From UHGV virus genome UHGV-0107762: a stretch of 10,139 nt of DNA, one strand, 5' to 3'. A program made the translations under genes and the position numbers. A model generated the notes under the pieces. It ran no database searches. It was not told where the DNA came from and worked only from the letters and a program-made list of their open reading frames with translations. Source of the stretch: a virus. This document shows positions 1-6,370 of the stretch, in pieces. Numbering within the stretch: position 1 is the first letter of the stretch; the number at the start of each line of letters is the position of its first letter.

Positions 1-7
1 GCGGCCT

Positions 8-34
8 CTTTAGCATAACGTCATTGTGCGAACC
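8..34 (-). other. Degenerate dif-like sequence, inverted relative to the dif at 8404
   Basis: The minus strand reads GGTTCGCACAA-TGACG-TTATGCTAAAG: 9/11 matches to the XerC arm and 9/11 to the XerD arm of dif, but with a 5-nt rather than 6-nt central region. Confidence 0.3.
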
Positions 35-49
35 AAAATCTTTTAGATT

Positions 50-241
50 TTATTTTCCGCAAGCAGGGCAGACGTTTGCATCACCAAATTGCATTGTAGT
101 GCTTTTATTCACACTAAAACTTTCGAATCCTTCACGTAAGGATTTTTTTTCACCATTAAAAAGATATGTTGTAAATTCTTTTTTCTCCGCATCAGTCAAT
201 TGAAGCCAGAGAGCTTTGACTTGATCTACTTTATAACTCAT
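50..241 (-). CDS. Small hypothetical protein (63 aa) with C-terminal CPAC motif; downstream gene of a two-gene operon
   Basis: Internal ATG at 241 of the 50..283 ORF is preceded by a strong SD (AAGGAG, 6-nt spacer) that overlaps the TAA stop of the upstream gene (253-255), suggesting translational coupling. No homolog recognised. Confidence 0.45.
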   Translation of the reverse strand: MSYKVDQVKALWLQLTDAEKKEFTTYLFNGEKKSLREGFESFSVNKSTTMQFGDANVCPACGK

Positions 242-252
242 TTGTTTCTCCT

Positions 253-834
253 TTATTTCACGAGATTGCCACAATTTGTGCAACCTTTCCGCTTGTTAAA
301 TTTAGTCGGTATTTTATTGCAACGTACGCATTCTTTATTTTTCTTTACCAGAATGTCGAACATAATCCGTTTCTTATCATTATTGCTAACATATTTTTCA
401 TCTTCCTTGGCATTGAAGTCATCTTTTGATTTTATCACTGAAAACAAATGGTTAGCGGGTTGCTGGTTGCCTGTCTTTGATTTAAACATGCTCGACAGTT
501 CGCCATACAAATCAGTTAGGAGTTTATTGAAAGAGTATGATTCCAGATATCGAGATAAATTTTCATCAGTCTTCATGACCAGTGTGTATAAATTAGAAAG
601 CAAGACTATCACTGATAATATCCCTGTGCCCCAAACTAAAAAATCAAAATATTTGGAGCTGTGATCAACCGATGCGTATCCTCCAACTAGGACAGGGAGG
701 GCAAATGATAGATATTGGTTTATTTTTAAAAGTCGTTCGCTTTTTTTGATTTTAGTTTTTAAGTAGTCAGCTGTTCCCTCTGCGTAAAATTTCCTGAGGT
801 CCATTTCTTCATTCGGTTGCATACTCATCTTCAC
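253..834 (-). CDS. Hypothetical 2-TM membrane protein with C-terminal 4-Cys zinc-ribbon-like motif (CVRC...CTNC)
   Basis: 193-aa ORF: N-terminal amphipathic region, two hydrophobic helices (LSFALPVLVGGYASV and LVWGTGILSVIVLLSNLYTLV) separated by a short loop, then a Lys-rich tail with CxxC-x13-CxxC. Visibly AT-rich. Start is uncertain (GTG 834, ATG 828 or ATG 822; SD AAAGGTG lies just upstream). Confidence 0.55.
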   Translation of the reverse strand: MKMSMQPNEEMDLRKFYAEGTADYLKTKIKKSERLLKINQYLSFALPVLVGGYASVDHSSKYFDFLVWGTGILSVIVLLSNLYTLVMKTDENLSRYLESYSFNKLLTDLYGELSSMFKSKTGNQQPANHLFSVIKSKDDFNAKEDEKYVSNNDKKRIMFDILVKKNKECVRCNKIPTKFNKRKGCTNCGNLVK

Positions 835-900
835 CTTTCACAATATCAAACTAGCGCGGGCTGAAATTATAAAAAACCTGTAAATTCAAGTGATTGACAT

Positions 901-1323
901 TCACCAATAATATGAATTCCTTCTGTGCCACCAATAAAGCAGACCGTATCCGACGATAAGAATCCCGAAGAACATCAGAGACATTCCCCAGCCAGTTCCA
1001 TACCACGAAACCATATCATCGAAAACCAGCCCACCCGTTTCACGAACTCCGGCAGCTTCCTTAAGAATTGGCTTGAATATCGGAATCAGAAGGGCGATCG
1101 CCAGTGGAGCACCCCAGCGAACAAGACCAGTTTCCATTTTGATACCGAAAAAGATCCCCGCACCGACAACAAGCAGCCAGACTATCAGGCCAGGCGCAGT
1201 TTCCAGTGCTGTTTGCCATTCAACATCGAAAGTTTTCATTAGCCAGGCTACAACAGCCAGGCAGAAAGCAAATACGCCTACAACAACCAGTTCAACGCCG
1301 CTTGTTCCGTTATTTCTACTCAT
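901..1323 (-). CDS. Hypothetical small integral membrane protein (about 4 TM helices)
   Basis: 140-aa ORF with four hydrophobic stretches (LVVVGVFAFCLAVVAWL, GLIVWLLVVGAGIFFGI, GAPLAIALLIPIF, GMSLMFFGILIVGYGLLYWW). SD-like AGGA sits 8 nt upstream of ATG 1323. The overlapping + strand ORFs (925..1242, 1073..1363) look non-coding by composition. Confidence 0.55.
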   Translation of the reverse strand: MSRNNGTSGVELVVVGVFAFCLAVVAWLMKTFDVEWQTALETAPGLIVWLLVVGAGIFFGIKMETGLVRWGAPLAIALLIPIFKPILKEAAGVRETGGLVFDDMVSWYGTGWGMSLMFFGILIVGYGLLYWWHRRNSYYW

Positions 1324-1361
1324 CCTTTTGATCCTTTGTTACTGTTCAAAATTCGCACAAT

Positions 1362-1394
1362 AAAAAACGTGCAGTGTTGGTAATACTGCACGTT
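1362..1394 (-). terminator. Putative rho-independent terminator for the minus-strand 60-aa gene
   Basis: Perfect inverted repeat AACGTGCAGT / ACTGCACGTT (1366-1375 / 1385-1394) with a 9-nt loop. On the minus strand it is followed by a run of six T (complement of the A-run at 1362-1367). Lies 18 nt downstream of the stop of ORF 1412..1594. Confidence 0.5.
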
Positions 1395-1411
1395 TGTACC
1401 ATTCGTGGTAC

Positions 1412-1594
1412 TTAATCCTTTTGTTTGGCAGACATGAGATCTTCTGCTGCATCTTTAGAGTAGTTATCAATCAGATAACCTAAAATCTCTGTCCATGTAA
1501 TTGTTTTTCCTAGTTTTACACTGGCATTTATAGCCAGTCGTTCTAGTTTCATTTTTCTTTCTTCCGTCACGTTATAAGTCGTGCGCTTTGCCAT
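1412..1594 (-). CDS. Putative ribbon-helix-helix (CopG/Arc/MetJ-like) transcriptional regulator, candidate phage repressor
   Basis: 60-aa ORF MAKRTTYNVTEERKMKLERLAINASVKLGKTITWTEILGYLIDNY. The N-terminal beta-strand with alternating residues, helix, G-x-T turn and second helix follow the RHH pattern (compared with CopG from memory). Transcribed divergently from gII, analogous to rstR/rstA in CTXphi. Confidence 0.5.
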   Translation of the reverse strand: MAKRTTYNVTEERKMKLERLAINASVKLGKTITWTEILGYLIDNYSKDAAEDLMSAKQKD

Positions 1595-1620
1595 TTTTTA
1601 CGCTCGTTCAATGCAATATT

Positions 1621-1723
1621 TGAAGTGAGTATACATGCTCATGAACTCATATCATCCAATCCTCTTGAACTCACTAGCTCACTGGTGTAATGTTAAAACA
1701 CTAATGAACTACTGAACTCATGT
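1621..1723. promoter_or_regulatory. Candidate operator/promoter region between the divergent regulator and gII: repeated TGAACT(C/A) motifs plus a putative sigma70 promoter
   Basis: TGAACTCA at 1642-1649, 1666-1673 and 1713-1720, and TGAACTA at 1704-1710. AGTGAGT (1624-1630) is the inverted copy of ACTCACT (1669-1675). Possible -35 TTGAAC (1665-1670) and -10 TAATGT (1688-1693) with a 17-nt spacer, so one repeat overlaps the -35. Confidence 0.4.
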
Positions 1724-1763
1724 GTTAGTAAGTCGTCATTTTTGCAATTTTGAGGATTTATTC

Positions 1764-2816
1764 GTGATCGATTGGCTTACCGGGATTTTCCCTTGCACAC
1801 ACAAACCGCTTCCGGCGGGGAGTGTTGTCAGCGTTGATGCTGACGGTGCAATTGAGTGGGAAACCGTTAAGCGACTGACTGTTCGCGGTTCGCATGAAGC
1901 AACGATGAAAGTACGATCGATAGGATCTAATGGCGAAGGTAAAGCGACACATTTGTACATTGATGGTAATCCTTCCAAGTTTCTGCAGGGGCATTCTGTT
2001 GTTGGGTCGGATGATATACAAGGGCTCATGTTGACGGTCTATGCCAGGATTTTATCCTTATTGAATATTCCTCATGATTTAGCGTCTTATAAAGCCGTTA
2101 TGGCAGGTCAGTATAAAATTTCACGTATTGACATTAATTACATGTATTCATTATCTACGCTGGAAAATGTCAGATCATGGCTTTATGCCGCCGAATTTAA
2201 AGCTAAAACACGCCATGGTCGCGCATGTGGGAAAGGCGGTACAGTTTATTTAGGTAAAAACTCCCGTCGATGGAGTCTGAAATTTTATTCAAAATATGAT
2301 GAACACGTTTCTGGTAAAAAAGGGCACCAGATAGCCGAAGAGTTTGTACGAGCCGGGTTACTGGACTGGACGAAAGATAAATTACGTATTGAATTAACAT
2401 TAAGAACAACTGAGCTTATTGATTTAAATTTAACGCTTGGCGCTAACTGGAATATGAAAACACCACGTCAATTATTCTCTGAATATGTAGGGAGAATAGA
2501 AATGAATCAGAATGCTATTTTAAGTGATGAAAAAATAACGAAACTGCCAAGAAAAATACAGTCAACTTATTTACTTTGGAAACAAGGGGCTAACATGAAA
2601 GAAATGTTACCTCATAACACTTTTTATCGCCATAGAAGAGAATTGCTTTCGTTCGGTATCGATATTAATTTCTATTGTGATTCACCAGACTCTAATAACG
2701 TTGTTCCGCTAATAAGAACGCTGGAAGCCAAGCCAGCGGAAATCCCCTTATGGATTTATGAGAAAGGTTTTATTTTCGATTACAACCGTATTTCGCACGC
2801 CAGTAGCTGGCATTAA
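1764..2816 (+). CDS. gII: Replication initiation protein pII (rolling-circle nickase) of an Ff-like filamentous phage
   Basis: Translation shares blocks with M13 pII recalled from memory: N-terminal MID..., KFLQGHSVVGSDD vs KVLQGHNVFGTTD, KISRID vs TISRID, NNVVPL identical. Preferred start is GTG 1764 (SD GAGGA 7 nt upstream, gives MIDWL... like M13 MIDML...); the track ORF starts at an in-frame GTG 1722. About 350 aa, shorter than M13 pII. Confidence 0.9.
   Translation: MIDWLTGIFPCTHKPLPAGSVVSVDADGAIEWETVKRLTVRGSHEATMKVRSIGSNGEGKATHLYIDGNPSKFLQGHSVVGSDDIQGLMLTVYARILSLLNIPHDLASYKAVMAGQYKISRIDINYMYSLSTLENVRSWLYAAEFKAKTRHGRACGKGGTVYLGKNSRRWSLKFYSKYDEHVSGKKGHQIAEEFVRAGLLDWTKDKLRIELTLRTTELIDLNLTLGANWNMKTPRQLFSEYVGRIEMNQNAILSDEKITKLPRKIQSTYLLWKQGANMKEMLPHNTFYRHRRELLSFGIDINFYCDSPDSNNVVPLIRTLEAKPAEIPLWIYEKGFIFDYNRISHASSWH
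2502..2816 (+). CDS. gX: pX, in-frame internal restart within gII (replication regulator)
   Basis: In-frame ATG at 2502 preceded by GGGAGA. The product begins MNQNAILSDEKI..., matching the position and start of M13 pX (MNIYDD...). 104 aa. Confidence 0.6.
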   Translation: MNQNAILSDEKITKLPRKIQSTYLLWKQGANMKEMLPHNTFYRHRRELLSFGIDINFYCDSPDSNNVVPLIRTLEAKPAEIPLWIYEKGFIFDYNRISHASSWH

Positions 2817-2827
2817 AGGAAAGTAAT

Positions 2828-3145
2828 ATGTCTAATTATGGTCTTTTCGTTAAGGGTAAAATGTTGGGAGCCCGCCAACGTAATAAAGTTAATGGTCAGG
2901 GCTATTATAATGAAATTGGTATTGGCCTTGAAATACCTGATGGTTTTGGTGGTACAAAGCAGGATCAAATTATTATTCGAGTTTCTCAGGCTCTCGTTAA
3001 CGCAGGTCTAATGAACCAGGCGAATGCTTTCATTGGGAAATTAGTTCAAATTCCTGTCTATGTCCGTGCGTGGTCAATGGAGGGTAGGGAAGGTGTAACT
3101 TATAATGTTGCTTCCGATGGTGGCATCGCAGAGATCAAAGGTTAA
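2828..3145 (+). CDS. Protein in the gV position (presumed ssDNA-binding protein), sequence not recognisably Ff/IKe gV-like
   Basis: 105-aa ORF directly after gII with SD AAGGA upstream of ATG 2828, and directly before gVII. Gly-rich, no similarity to M13 or IKe pV as recalled. Function is inferred from position only. Confidence 0.55.
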   Translation: MSNYGLFVKGKMLGARQRNKVNGQGYYNEIGIGLEIPDGFGGTKQDQIIIRVSQALVNAGLMNQANAFIGKLVQIPVYVRAWSMEGREGVTYNVASDGGIAEIKG

Positions 3146-3147
3146 AT

Positions 3148-3234
3148 ATGGACGATGTTATTCAAATTTTGATAGCGTCTGGCATCGTTATTTCTTTTGG
3201 CCTCGGCGCGATTACTGCGGGGGTCTTTCGTTAA
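3148..3234 (+). CDS. gVII: Minor coat protein pVII
   Basis: 28-aa ORF MDDVIQILIASGIVISFGLGAITAGVFR. Hydrophobic; C-terminal GAITAGVFR resembles M13 pVII ...GIIAGGQR. Starts 3 nt after the gV-position stop. Confidence 0.7.
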   Translation: MDDVIQILIASGIVISFGLGAITAGVFR

Positions 3235-3329
3235 TGTATATCGTTTATTTCTTCGGGGCTTATACCTTTGGTTTTGCCCTTTTCTATGCGGTCGGTTCAT
3301 TTAAATCATTTTCTGACCGATTAATGTAA
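3234..3329 (+). CDS. gIX: Minor coat protein pIX
   Basis: 31-aa ORF MYIVYFFGAYTFGFALFYAVGSFKSFSDRLM. Its ATG overlaps the gVII TAA (TAATG) as in Ff phages; C-terminal SDRLM resembles M13 pIX ...TRLM.... This is the 3' part of track ORF 3105..3329. Confidence 0.7.
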   Translation: MYIVYFFGAYTFGFALFYAVGSFKSFSDRLM

Positions 3330-3348
3330 CCTTAATGGAGTTATTCCT

Positions 3349-3591
3349 ATGAAAATTCTGTCTACTGTTAAATATAAAATTGCTCTGGCTTCAACTGCGC
3401 TTTTTATTTCTGCAAGTTCTTTTGCGGCTGAAGGCGCTACAGGTGGTACTGATTATGCAGGTCAGGCAATGGATGCTTTGTTGACTCAGGCAAATGATCT
3501 CATTGGTAAAGTATGGCCTGTTGTTGTTGCTGTGGTTGGCGCTGGGCTTGCCATTCGTATTTTCAAAAAATTCTCTTCAAAAGCGGTTTGA
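3349..3591 (+). CDS. gVIII: Major coat protein pVIII precursor
   Basis: 80-aa ORF with signal peptide ending SFA/AEG (M13 has SFAAEG), an acidic N-terminal segment, a hydrophobic core and a basic C-terminus [12 protein letters not shown] (M13 IKLFKKFTSKAS; IKe-like as recalled). SD GGAG upstream. Confidence 0.92.
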
Positions 3592-3601
3592 ATTTCACTC
3601 A

Positions 3602-3624
3602 GGGGCACTCGTTGCCCCTTTATT
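3602..3624 (+). terminator. Rho-independent terminator after gVIII
   Basis: GC-rich hairpin GGGGCA-ctcgt-TGCCCC (3602-3618) followed by TTTATT. Ff phages have their main intrinsic terminator at this same position. Confidence 0.7.
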
Positions 3625-3637
3625 AAAGCGGGTTACT

Positions 3638-4927
3638 ATGAGAAGGAAAATATTAATTCTTTCCGCTGTCCTCATTTCTCCTTTTTCACATGCTGAGTCA
3701 TGGGAAAGCATTACTAAATCCACTTATCAAAGTTCTGCCTATGCTGAAAGTAAGCAAATAACCAATCAGGATGGCTCTAAGATAACGGTTTACTATATTG
3801 ATGCTGCTATGCAGGCCTCCGCTTGTCAGGGTGCTAAATCCAGTGCTCAGAGTGTATTTACTCGGATTAAACCAACTTATGAGGGTATCTGGCCTGATTC
3901 TGAATTCCGTCTTGTTTTTACTGGCGATTGTACTTACAGCGATTCACCAGGGCAGAAGGATAAATATTGGTCTTTAACGGCTTATATTGTTGGTAATATT
4001 CAGCGTTCTGTTCCTGATGAAAAACCTACTGACCCGACACCAGAAGAAATTTGTGAAGCGAAGCCGCCAGAAGAAGGTGTATTTAATAATGTTGATTCAT
4101 ATGATGGTGGTCGCTATATCTACTATAACGGCTGTGAATATGAGGCTACTGGTGTCATTGTTTGTCAGGGTGATGGTACTGTTTGCGCTGCAACATGGAA
4201 GCCTACAGGTGCTGTAGCTGACCCCTCTGATAAACCCTCAACCCCCCAAAATGGTGGTGGTGAGTCTGGCGGTGGTGAGTCCGGCGGTGGTGAGTCCGGT
4301 GGTGGTGAGTCCGGTGGTGGTGAGTCTGGCGGTGGTGAGTCCGGTGGCGGTAGTTCTGGCGGTAGTTCTGGCGGTAGTTCTGGCGGTGGCTCTAGTGGTT
4401 CCAGTCTTTCTAAAGGTGATATTCAGTCTGCGATCGAAGGTGCTTCACCCAAAATAGCCAGCGATATTCATGATAAATTAACGGAGAAAGACACTTCATC
4501 AGATGATAAAAAAAATGCCGATGAACAAACCAGGAATAATATAAATCGTCTTGACGATTCCATTAACAATCTTACGCGGGGGGCTGGCCGTTTTGCTGAC
4601 CCTTCAGGTGGTGATTCTCGTTATGGAAAGGGCGACTCTGAATTAGATGGCGCTTCTACTTTAGCTGATTCTGAATTGGGAATTGAAAAGGATTCTCACG
4701 GTGCTTTATGGGAAGCATTTTTAAATAAAGGTGCTATGCTGCCTAATTTACCCAATGGTAACGGCTGCTCTGATTTTATTATTTTTCCCGGAGAGGTTTA
4801 TCAGATTGATATTGGTTGCGATAAATTACTGACTATTAAAGATGTTCTTTCATGGGTTTTTTATTGCCTTACGTTCTGGTATGTCTTTACTTCTTTAACT
4901 TCATTGCTTCGCAAAGGGGGTGAGTGA
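3638..4927 (+). CDS. gIII: Attachment/adsorption protein pIII
   Basis: In-frame ATG 3638 gives signal peptide [46 protein letters not shown] matches the M13 pIII TolA-binding N1 motif GCLWNATGVVVCTGDETQCYGTWVPIG. A (GGGES)n/(GGSS)n linker follows, and the C-terminus (...[23 protein letters not shown]...[17 protein letters not shown]) parallels the M13 pIII C-terminal anchor. The track ORF 3494..4927 is a 5' over-extension. Confidence 0.92.
4253..4406 (+). repeat. Tandem in-frame codon repeat encoding the Gly/Ser/Glu linker of pIII
   Basis: Six copies of the 15-bp unit GGTGGTGGTGAGTCY (GGGES), then three copies of GGCGGTAGTTCT (GGSS) and a degenerate tail. Confidence 0.85.
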
Positions 4928-5268
4928 TGCCTTTATTATTAGGTATTCCTGCATTGTTGCGTTTTCTTATTGGTCTTGTTCCTTTGTTTATTGGCTATGT
5001 GGCGAGTTTTTTAGCTCGACTTGCTACCAGAACAGGATTAATCGCCTTTGCATTGGTCGCATTAATTACAACAACTGTTACGCTTTTAATGCAGTACCTT
5101 GCTGAGGTCATGTATAACGGTTTACCTGCTGATTTCTCCCATTTAATGGCGTCTGTATTGCCTGACCATTTTCAGGCGTGTGTTAACGTTATTATGGTTA
5201 CTCGTATCAGTGTTTTTGTTTTCGATTTAAAACAAAAATTTCTTGATTATGCAAACAGGGTGATTTAA
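4927..5268 (+). CDS. gVI: Minor coat protein pVI
   Basis: [17 protein letters not shown]... matches M13 pVI MPVLLGIPLLLRFLGFL...; also VFDLKQK vs IFDVKQK. ATG 4927 overlaps the gIII TGA (TGATG). The track ORF begins one codon earlier at GTG 4924. Confidence 0.9.
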   Translation: MPLLLGIPALLRFLIGLVPLFIGYVASFLARLATRTGLIAFALVALITTTVTLLMQYLAEVMYNGLPADFSHLMASVLPDHFQACVNVIMVTRISVFVFDLKQKFLDYANRVI

Positions 5269-6363
5269 ATGGCGGTTTATGTAGTAACAGGCAAATTAGG
5301 CTCAGGCAAGACACTTGTTAGTGTTTCCAGAATACAGGAAAGACTTGCTAAGGGTTGTCCTGTTGCCACTAATCTTGATCTTAAATTGCATAATATGCCT
5401 ATGGTTGGGCGTTATGCGAAAAAAACGCGCGTTATTCGCATTCCTGACAAGCCTTCATTAAATGATTTACTTGCTATTGGTATTGGGAATACATCTTACG
5501 ATGAATCCCGTAATGGCCTCCTTGTACTTGATGAATGTGGTACTTGGTTTAATTCCCGCTCATGGGGTGATAAAGACAGACAACCTGTTATTGACTGGTT
5601 TTTACATGCCAGAAAATTAGGCTGGGATATTATATTTTTGATTCAGGATATTTCGATAATGGATAAGCAAGCTCGTCTGGCGCTTGCTGAGCATGTTGTT
5701 TATTGTCGCCGTTCAGATAAATTAAACATTCCTTTTGTTGGCTCCATTATGAATTTGGTTTCAGGGGCGAGATTTTCTTTACCAAAGGTACACTTTGGCA
5801 TTGTCAAATATGGTGATAATGTTAATTCAATCACTGTTGATAAATGGATATATACAGGAAAATCTCTTTATTCTGCTTACAATACCAAACAAGCGTTCAC
5901 AGATAATTATCCTCATGGCGCATTTTCGCTTTTGCCACCATTTATCACGCACGGTCAATTTTCTGTTCACAGAGGATTTAATTATTATATGCGCCTCACT
6001 AAAATTTATTTTCGCAAATCGAACCGTCTTATATTAATGCTTTCTTTTTTGGCGCTGGGGCTTGCGTTTGGTTTCTGGCTCCAGTCTGGAAAGAATGTTG
6101 ATGAAATCTCAGCTATTAAATCTGCTTATGCTGAACAGGCGAGGGCGGTAACGCCTGATTCGTCCAGTGACTTACCCCGACTTTCTATTAATTCTTTTTC
6201 ACAACTTGGCTTTGACGTTTCCGTTACGTTTGTTGATGCAAAAGGTATGAAATATCAGTATTTTGATTTGATTAAAGATGGTTATTCCGTTGATATTAAA
6301 GATGCCTGTCGTGTTGTTATTAGAAAAGGCCGTTATTTACAGACTGTTACCTGTCAGGAGTAA
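5269..6363 (+). CDS. gI: Assembly protein pI (Zot-like morphogenesis ATPase)
   Basis: MAVYVVTGKLGSGKTLVSV (Walker A) is near-identical to M13 pI MAVYFVTGKLGSGKTLVSV. Further long matches include LLVLDECGTWFNSRSW, DWFLHARKLGWDIIFL and ALAEHVVYCRR. ATG follows the gVI stop directly. Confidence 0.93.
   Translation: MAVYVVTGKLGSGKTLVSVSRIQERLAKGCPVATNLDLKLHNMPMVGRYAKKTRVIRIPDKPSLNDLLAIGIGNTSYDESRNGLLVLDECGTWFNSRSWGDKDRQPVIDWFLHARKLGWDIIFLIQDISIMDKQARLALAEHVVYCRRSDKLNIPFVGSIMNLVSGARFSLPKVHFGIVKYGDNVNSITVDKWIYTGKSLYSAYNTKQAFTDNYPHGAFSLLPPFITHGQFSVHRGFNYYMRLTKIYFRKSNRLILMLSFLALGLAFGFWLQSGKNVDEISAIKSAYAEQARAVTPDSSSDLPRLSINSFSQLGFDVSVTFVDAKGMKYQYFDLIKDGYSVDIKDACRVVIRKGRYLQTVTCQE
5989..6363 (+). CDS. 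gXI: pXI, in-frame internal restart within gI
   Basis: In-frame ATG at codon 241 of gI gives MRLTKIYFRKSNRL..., which parallels M13 pXI MKLTKIYLKKFSRVL. 124 aa with one predicted TM segment. Confidence 0.55.
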   Translation: MRLTKIYFRKSNRLILMLSFLALGLAFGFWLQSGKNVDEISAIKSAYAEQARAVTPDSSSDLPRLSINSFSQLGFDVSVTFVDAKGMKYQYFDLIKDGYSVDIKDACRVVIRKGRYLQTVTCQE

Positions 6364-6370
6364 TATTATT

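Follow-up and report, generated by a model that had tools for sequence, protein, structure and literature searches.

The window analyzed here is a stretch of 10,139 nucleotides (UHGV virus genome UHGV-0107762), in which positions 1 to 8431 make up about one copy of a filamentous-phage genome. Many E. coli genomes, those of UM146 and C10 among them, have a chromosomal prophage that matches the window at ~99% identity, and similarity to most E. coli genomes stops at ~8431 to 8434, at the dif site (Table 1). Primers designed for UPΦ901 (PMC7307601) match gIII of the window with 0 and 2 mismatches, and the layout is likewise that of UPΦ: three reverse ORFs, the core genes in I2-2 order, two ORFs after gIV, and then dif. 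On the basis of the primers, the layout, and the near-identity to E. coli prophages, the element is a UPΦ-type, Lineavirus-like prophage at dif. When the phage core was compared with a phage collection by megablast, only a 190-nt patch of gIV (80% identical to IKe and PEar phages) was returned, so the searched collection holds no close sequenced phage. In E. coli C10, the prophage is present in tandem copies, and a gI-gIV-h1-h2 repeat lies upstream of the copy matched by the window. Just past dif is a 507-aa ORF (8566 to 10089) with a weak match to Phage_integrase (E = 0.011). It is annotated as a “site-specific integrase” in strain 1368KP and accompanies the prophage in only 2 matching genomes; possibly it is part of another element that has inserted beside dif.

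The ORFs from gII to gIV fall into the Pfam families G2P rep, G7P, Gp8 coat, G3P, DUF5455 (at the gVI position), Zot-like pI, and secretin. PHROG 17464 matches gII residues 261 to 360, which is the region of gX. Directly after gVIII, at 3600 to 3625, there is a G+C-rich hairpin (GGGGCACTCGTTGCCCC) followed by TTTATT, at the position occupied by the strong terminator in Ff phages. The N-terminal domain of gIII matches PF21443 (the G3P pilus-binding domain), and between 4250 and 4400 the gene encodes a long glycine-rich linker, (GGGES)n/(GGS)n, of the kind typical of pIII domain linkers. At the place of the candidate packaging hairpin of the window, I2-2 has an annotated morphogenetic signal, which also overlaps the end of gIV. 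Between gIV and dif, where I2-2, IKe, and M13 have only intergenic sequence, there are two ORFs here, and the smaller one contains paired CxxC motifs that hint at a zinc ribbon. Among the three reverse ORFs, none of which has a significant Pfam family, the 193-aa product is named “mobilome CxxCx(11)CxxC protein” by PGAP, the 140-aa product is a predicted membrane protein, and the 60-aa ORF occupies the repressor position.

Table 1. Features of the prophage and of its gene V region (positions in the window)
Feature	Position	Strand	Remarks
Reverse accessory ORFs	253-834, 901-1323, 1412-1594	-	193 aa, 140 aa, and 60 aa
gII, G2P-family rolling-circle replication initiator	1722..2816	+	PF05144, PF05155; PGAP start 1764; stop TAA 2814-2816 (sequence reading)
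gX, in-frame start inside gII	2502..2816	+	104 aa; ATG with GGGAG upstream; position as I2-2 gene X
gV Shine-Dalgarno AGGA	2817..2820	+	7 nt upstream of ATG; abuts gII stop; read from sequence
gV equivalent	2828..3145	+	ATG start, 105 aa; I2-2-type PF17426, predicted OB-fold ssDNA-binding protein, pI 9.35; stop TAA 3143-3145 (sequence reading)
gVII	3148..3234	+	28 aa; PF19978 Inovirus_G7P_2, E = 2.7e-11
gIX	3234..3329	+	31 aa; start overlaps gVII stop (TAATG)
gVIII, major coat protein	3349..3591	+	PF19199, E = 3.4e-19
Hairpin, candidate packaging (morphogenetic) signal	7632..7680	+	20-nt arms, 90% complementary, 9-nt loop; straddles gIV stop
ORFs after gIV	7706-8014, 8132-8365		102 aa and 77 aa; UPΦ “h1/h2” equivalents
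dif site, exact 28-bp E. coli	8404..8431	+	0 mismatches, 0 expected by chance; right prophage end

Our interest here is in the gene that fills the gV slot. A sequence-only reading of this DNA had placed an ORF with a Shine-Dalgarno sequence in that slot, and the ORF is indeed there, with gII before it and gVII after it. The same reading had given the gap between gV and gVII as 3 nt; the actual gap is 2 nt, since the TAA of gV ends at 3145 and the ATG of gVII begins at 3148. The 105-aa product had also been called glycine rich, which is borne out by a glycine content of 16.2% (17/105), versus 8.0% in M13 gVp. Short length alone would speak for a chance open reading frame with no gene behind it. 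Against this stand a Pfam score of 171 bits, the Shine-Dalgarno sequence and tight gene packing, the annotation of the gene by RefSeq, and the existence of full-length homologues (24 to 93% identity) in which length and motifs are conserved; on these sequence comparisons, we consider the chance reading refuted and its probability negligible. The protein has 43 relatives at an E value of ≤1e-3 among 1.8 billion cluster representatives, and the identical protein is encoded on at least 1000 public contigs. In G+C content, gV (0.412) does not differ from the rest of the phage (0.415) and thus gives no sign of recent acquisition. A scan for promoters and terminators around gV returned none above the shuffle expectation.

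The gV protein belongs to Pfam family PF17426 (Putative_G5P). Residues 2 to 104 align with positions 1 to 108 of the 108-position model (E = 8.3e-51; 171.1 bits, where the gathering threshold is 25 bits). The gene V product of phage I2-2 (NP_039617.1), itself a PF17426 protein (E = 3.6e-25), is 39% identical by BLASTP over 97% of the length (E = 2e-30). The two proteins occupy the same slot between gII/gX and gVII, are of similar length (108 aa in I2-2 versus 105 aa here), and have in common a DGFGG hairpin motif and the positions of tryptophan and tyrosine residues. Nevertheless, gV is the least conserved of the genes shared with I2-2 (39%, versus 52 to 73% for the others), and the phages themselves differ in that I2-2 is nonintegrating, whereas the element described here is integrated at dif and carries accessory ORFs. 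RefSeq lists the exact protein as WP_001734928.1 under the PGAP name “DNA-binding protein”; NCBIfam has no model for it, nor for the I2-2 or IKe gV proteins. We found no biochemistry or structure for any PF17426 member in the literature, and the Pfam name is itself “putative.”

A PF17426 gene that directly follows a G2P-family rep gene and precedes the coat genes is seen in the window, in I2-2, in D_HF2_144, in Dulem virus 53, and in Pseudomonas phages 97-1 and 42-1, so that beyond I2-2 this arrangement extends to human and lemur oral inoviruses and to Pseudomonas inoviruses. Two other kinds of match deserve mention. In a 144-aa ENA protein, helix-turn-helix (HTH) domains (PF12844/PF01381) are fused to a PF17426 domain that is 93% identical to gV of the window; this fusion is probably a gene-calling artifact on a short contig. 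In addition, four very long proteins (690 to 4005 aa) each match gV residues ~24 to 65 in 5 to 8 separate stretches. These could be repeat proteins built on a related hairpin motif, or the matches could be compositional.

The product had been said to bear no resemblance to the pV proteins of M13 and IKe, and each of our comparisons agrees with this. BLASTP against M13 and IKe pV gave chance alignments only (E values of 4.9 and 6.3), tblastn against IKe gave no match to gV at an E value of ≤10, and the Pfam search gave no match to PF02303 or PF17878 at an E value of ≤1. In the positive controls, PF02303 was matched by IKe gVp at 2e-23 and by M13 gVp at 1e-42. A profile-profile comparison by hhalign (a 37-sequence PF17426 alignment versus an 11-sequence gVp alignment) returned a probability of 1.2% over 8 columns.

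Structure prediction points in the same direction. The AlphaFold2 model, for which the input was the 37-sequence family alignment with the I2-2 sequence left out, has a pLDDT of 89.4 and a pTM of 0.76. It consists of strands at residues 6 to 19, 26 to 37, and 43 to 52, a helical segment at 54 to 67, and two further strands at 72 to 84 and 87 to 94. We confidently predict from this model that the protein adopts a classic OB fold with β1-β2-β3-α-β4-β5 topology. Almost all of the top 50 Foldseek matches were bacterial-type SSB chains (E values of ~3e-5 to 3e-4 and TM scores of ~0.5), the one exception being a trypanosome RNA-editing complex protein; PriB domains were among the best fold matches, and a BFVD structure search with the same model returned tailed-phage SSBs. 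None of the Foldseek or BFVD matches listed was an Ff gVp chain, even though the PDB contains 16 distinct Ff gVp sequences. When modeled with the same pipeline, an IKe-type gVp was all-β: it had eight short strands, and strand 3 led to strand 4 with no intervening helix. The comparison with OB-fold SSBs that had been proposed as a check therefore gives an OB fold whose best matches are SSB and PriB and not Ff gVp.

The relationship to cellular SSB and PriB OB domains (PF00436 and relatives; 1EYG, 1KAW, 6CQK, and 2CCZ) is one of fold resemblance, not of membership. The gV protein is shorter than these and ends straight after the barrel (...DGGIAEIKG, at residue 105); the disordered linker and acidic C-terminal tip (of the D-D-D-I-P-F type) of cellular SSB are absent. 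PF00436 itself (bacterial SSB) gave no match to gV at an E value of ≤1 in Pfam. A PDB search with the single gV sequence returned nothing, and a PDB profile search with the gV family returned PrgE alone, at a marginal E value of 0.085. Comparison by hhalign with E. coli SSB and PriB gave probabilities of <1%, although the targets were single sequences and this is a weak test. We also considered the “gV” of Thermus phage OH3, a BFVD match, as a possible bridge to gVp and rejected it: OH3 gV has no Pfam family or PDB relative and so says nothing about gVp.

One alternative that has to be weighed against these results is that gV is a highly divergent orthologue of Ff/IKe gVp (PF02303; PDB 1VQB/1GVP), of the same lineage and with the same dimeric all-β architecture, whose sequence similarity has been eroded. 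The two proteins do have a good deal in common: both are small (105 versus 87 to 88 aa) and basic, both are encoded between gII/gX and gVII, and both, taken broadly, are β-barrels of the OB type. Moreover, gII is remotely homologous to IKe gII (the same Pfam families), so a deep divergence of the whole ancestral module is conceivable. However, similarity to the PF17426 protein is missing at both the sequence and the profile levels, gVp is all-β whereas the PF17426 model has a helix between β3 and β4, and Ff gVp is not among the top structural matches listed. Neither sequence, profile, nor fold comparison makes this protein simply a divergent canonical gV product, and we regard such an orthology as very unlikely, although PF17426 and gVp may have a very deep shared origin inside the OB superfold.

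How far the replacement extends is apparent from the tblastn comparison of the core genes. Identities to I2-2 and IKe, respectively, were 70% and 70% for gVII, 53% and 57% for gIX, 57% and 60% for gVIII, 55% (N-terminal 195 aa) and 52% for gIII, 52% and 51% for gVI, 65% and 66% for gI, and 73% and 71% for gIV. In contrast, gII was 56% identical to I2-2 with only a 24% patch to IKe, and gV was 39% identical to I2-2. Since the genes from gVII to gIV are 51 to 73% identical to both phages, whereas gII and gV are of the I2-2 type only, the exchanged unit is the replication module. I2-2 was itself reportedly described by Stassen et al. in 1992 (J Mol Evol 34:141) as being like IKe except for an exchanged replication module, and our tblastn comparison reproduces the module boundary reported for that phage. 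Judged from sequence, then, gII/gX and gV appear to have been inherited as one replication module common to I2-2, UPΦ, and Ypfφ and unlike that of IKe and Ff, and the morphogenesis genes are those common to I2-2 and IKe. The sequence-only reading had proposed replacement by a nonorthologous protein within an otherwise conserved Ff backbone. The nonorthologous part stands, inasmuch as no orthology to gVp is detectable, but it was not gV alone that was replaced: gII, gX, and gV were exchanged together. Nor is the backbone that of Ff; it is I2-2/IKe-like (Lineavirus/UPΦ), and as a whole the element is collinear with I2-2.

The same division has been published for related elements. In UPΦ901, genes II and V make up a conserved module that is >85% identical to that of Ypfφ and <15% similar in IKe and M13, while outside these two genes UPΦ and Ypfφ are <20% identical (Shapiro & Putonti 2020, PMC7307601); in Ypfφ, YPO2274 and YPO2275 are assigned to the replication module (Derbise & Carniel 2014, PMC4266046). 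The prophage in the window has the same type of gII-gV module as that published for UPΦ901 and is in this respect like Ypfφ (CUS). A CUS-1/Ypfφ identity for the element as a whole was considered and rejected, in that its morphogenesis genes are 51 to 73% identical to those of I2-2 and IKe, whereas UPΦ is <20% identical to Ypfφ there.

Rep-PF17426 gene pairs are also found on plasmids. The H. ducreyi nadV plasmid pNAD1 carries (at 3215 to 5204 of the locus) a G2P-type rep gene, a PF17426 gene whose product is 35% identical to gV of the window, and a major capsid gene. It has no gIII, gVI, gI, or gIV and resembles the remains of a filamentous phage that now serve as a plasmid replicon. PF17426 ORFs have likewise been described on small Rep_1 rolling-circle plasmids (PMC10378824). 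The recurrence of the pair on pNAD1 and on Rep_1 plasmids fits an ssDNA function linked to replication.

The pattern of conservation within the family is also suggestive. Among 37 family members, the residue at gV position 40 (at the tip of the β2-β3 hairpin, in the motif D-G-[FWY]-G-G) is aromatic in 100%, that at position 82 in 97%, and those at positions 78 and 92 in 73%, while position 16 is basic in 86% and position 71 in 81%. Such a set of aromatic and basic residues is what one would expect where an OB protein binds ssDNA. Most likely, gV is the functional analogue of Ff gVp and coats ssDNA cooperatively. That the slot is kept across inoviruses and that nothing else in the compact genome is a candidate for an SSB argue for this role. 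By this analogy, plus strands would be made by gII-driven rolling-circle replication as the gV protein accumulates. The latter would then coat the displaced ssDNA cooperatively, with the conserved F40, W82, Y78, and Y92 stacking on bases and R16 and K71 contacting the backbone, and the coated strands would be kept from becoming the double-stranded replicative form. The ssDNA, with its packaging hairpin exposed, presumably would be brought to the export machinery (pI/pIV), at which pVIII would take the place of the gV protein. The binding of ssDNA, its cooperativity, the switch and packaging roles, and any translational repression by gV are thus suggested by analogy to gVp and by the model. The analogy need not extend to the dimer by which Ff gVp wraps two strands.

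It is also possible that gV is an OB protein of the replication module with no coating role at all, acting instead as a PriB-like primosome or origin factor or as a regulator of gII activity or translation, in which case host SSB or another phage protein would serve as the packaging chaperone. PriB domains are, after all, among the best fold matches; the gV gene travels with rep and not with the coat genes; and a PF17426 gene has been kept beside rep both on pNAD1, which is devoid of assembly genes, and on the small Rep_1 plasmids. Such contexts point to a function in replication that does not depend on virion assembly. On the other hand, every other ORF from gII to gIV is accounted for, which leaves no other candidate for an SSB gene, and even distantly related inoviruses have the gene in the same place, just upstream of gVII/gIX/gVIII. 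Furthermore, Ff gVp is both a replication switch and a packaging chaperone, and a plasmid context leaves ssDNA coating possible. On balance, a noncoating role seems unlikely to us. We put the probability at roughly 80% that gV of this UPΦ-type prophage is a small, basic, single-domain OB protein of the PF17426 family, with undetectable sequence kinship to PF02303, and that this protein coats plus-strand ssDNA by analogy to gVp.

Much of this is already known. PF17426 is an existing Pfam family, the exact protein has a RefSeq name, and the gII/gV module split has been published for I2-2 and for UPΦ/Ypfφ. The identity of gV therefore carries little weight as a discovery; it is correct but ordinary. 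What is mildly new is the confident prediction, from the structural model, that PF17426 has an SSB/PriB-like and not an Ff gVp-like OB fold. One tentative idea, to which we would give somewhat less than even odds, is that PF17426 arose independently, when a cellular SSB/PriB-like OB domain, perhaps carried in from rolling-circle plasmids, took over the task of gV. If so, inoviruses would have at least two unrelated ssDNA packaging chaperones, and perhaps three with that of Thermus phage OH3, and the I2-2/UPΦ/Ypfφ type of protein might differ from the Ff gVp dimer in its oligomeric state and in the geometry of its nucleoprotein complex. Pathogenic Yersinia and E. coli commonly carry prophages of the Ypfφ and UPΦ types. 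Structural and binding work on a PF17426 protein would close a minor gap in what is known of filamentous phages and reveal the interchangeability of the replication/packaging-chaperone module.
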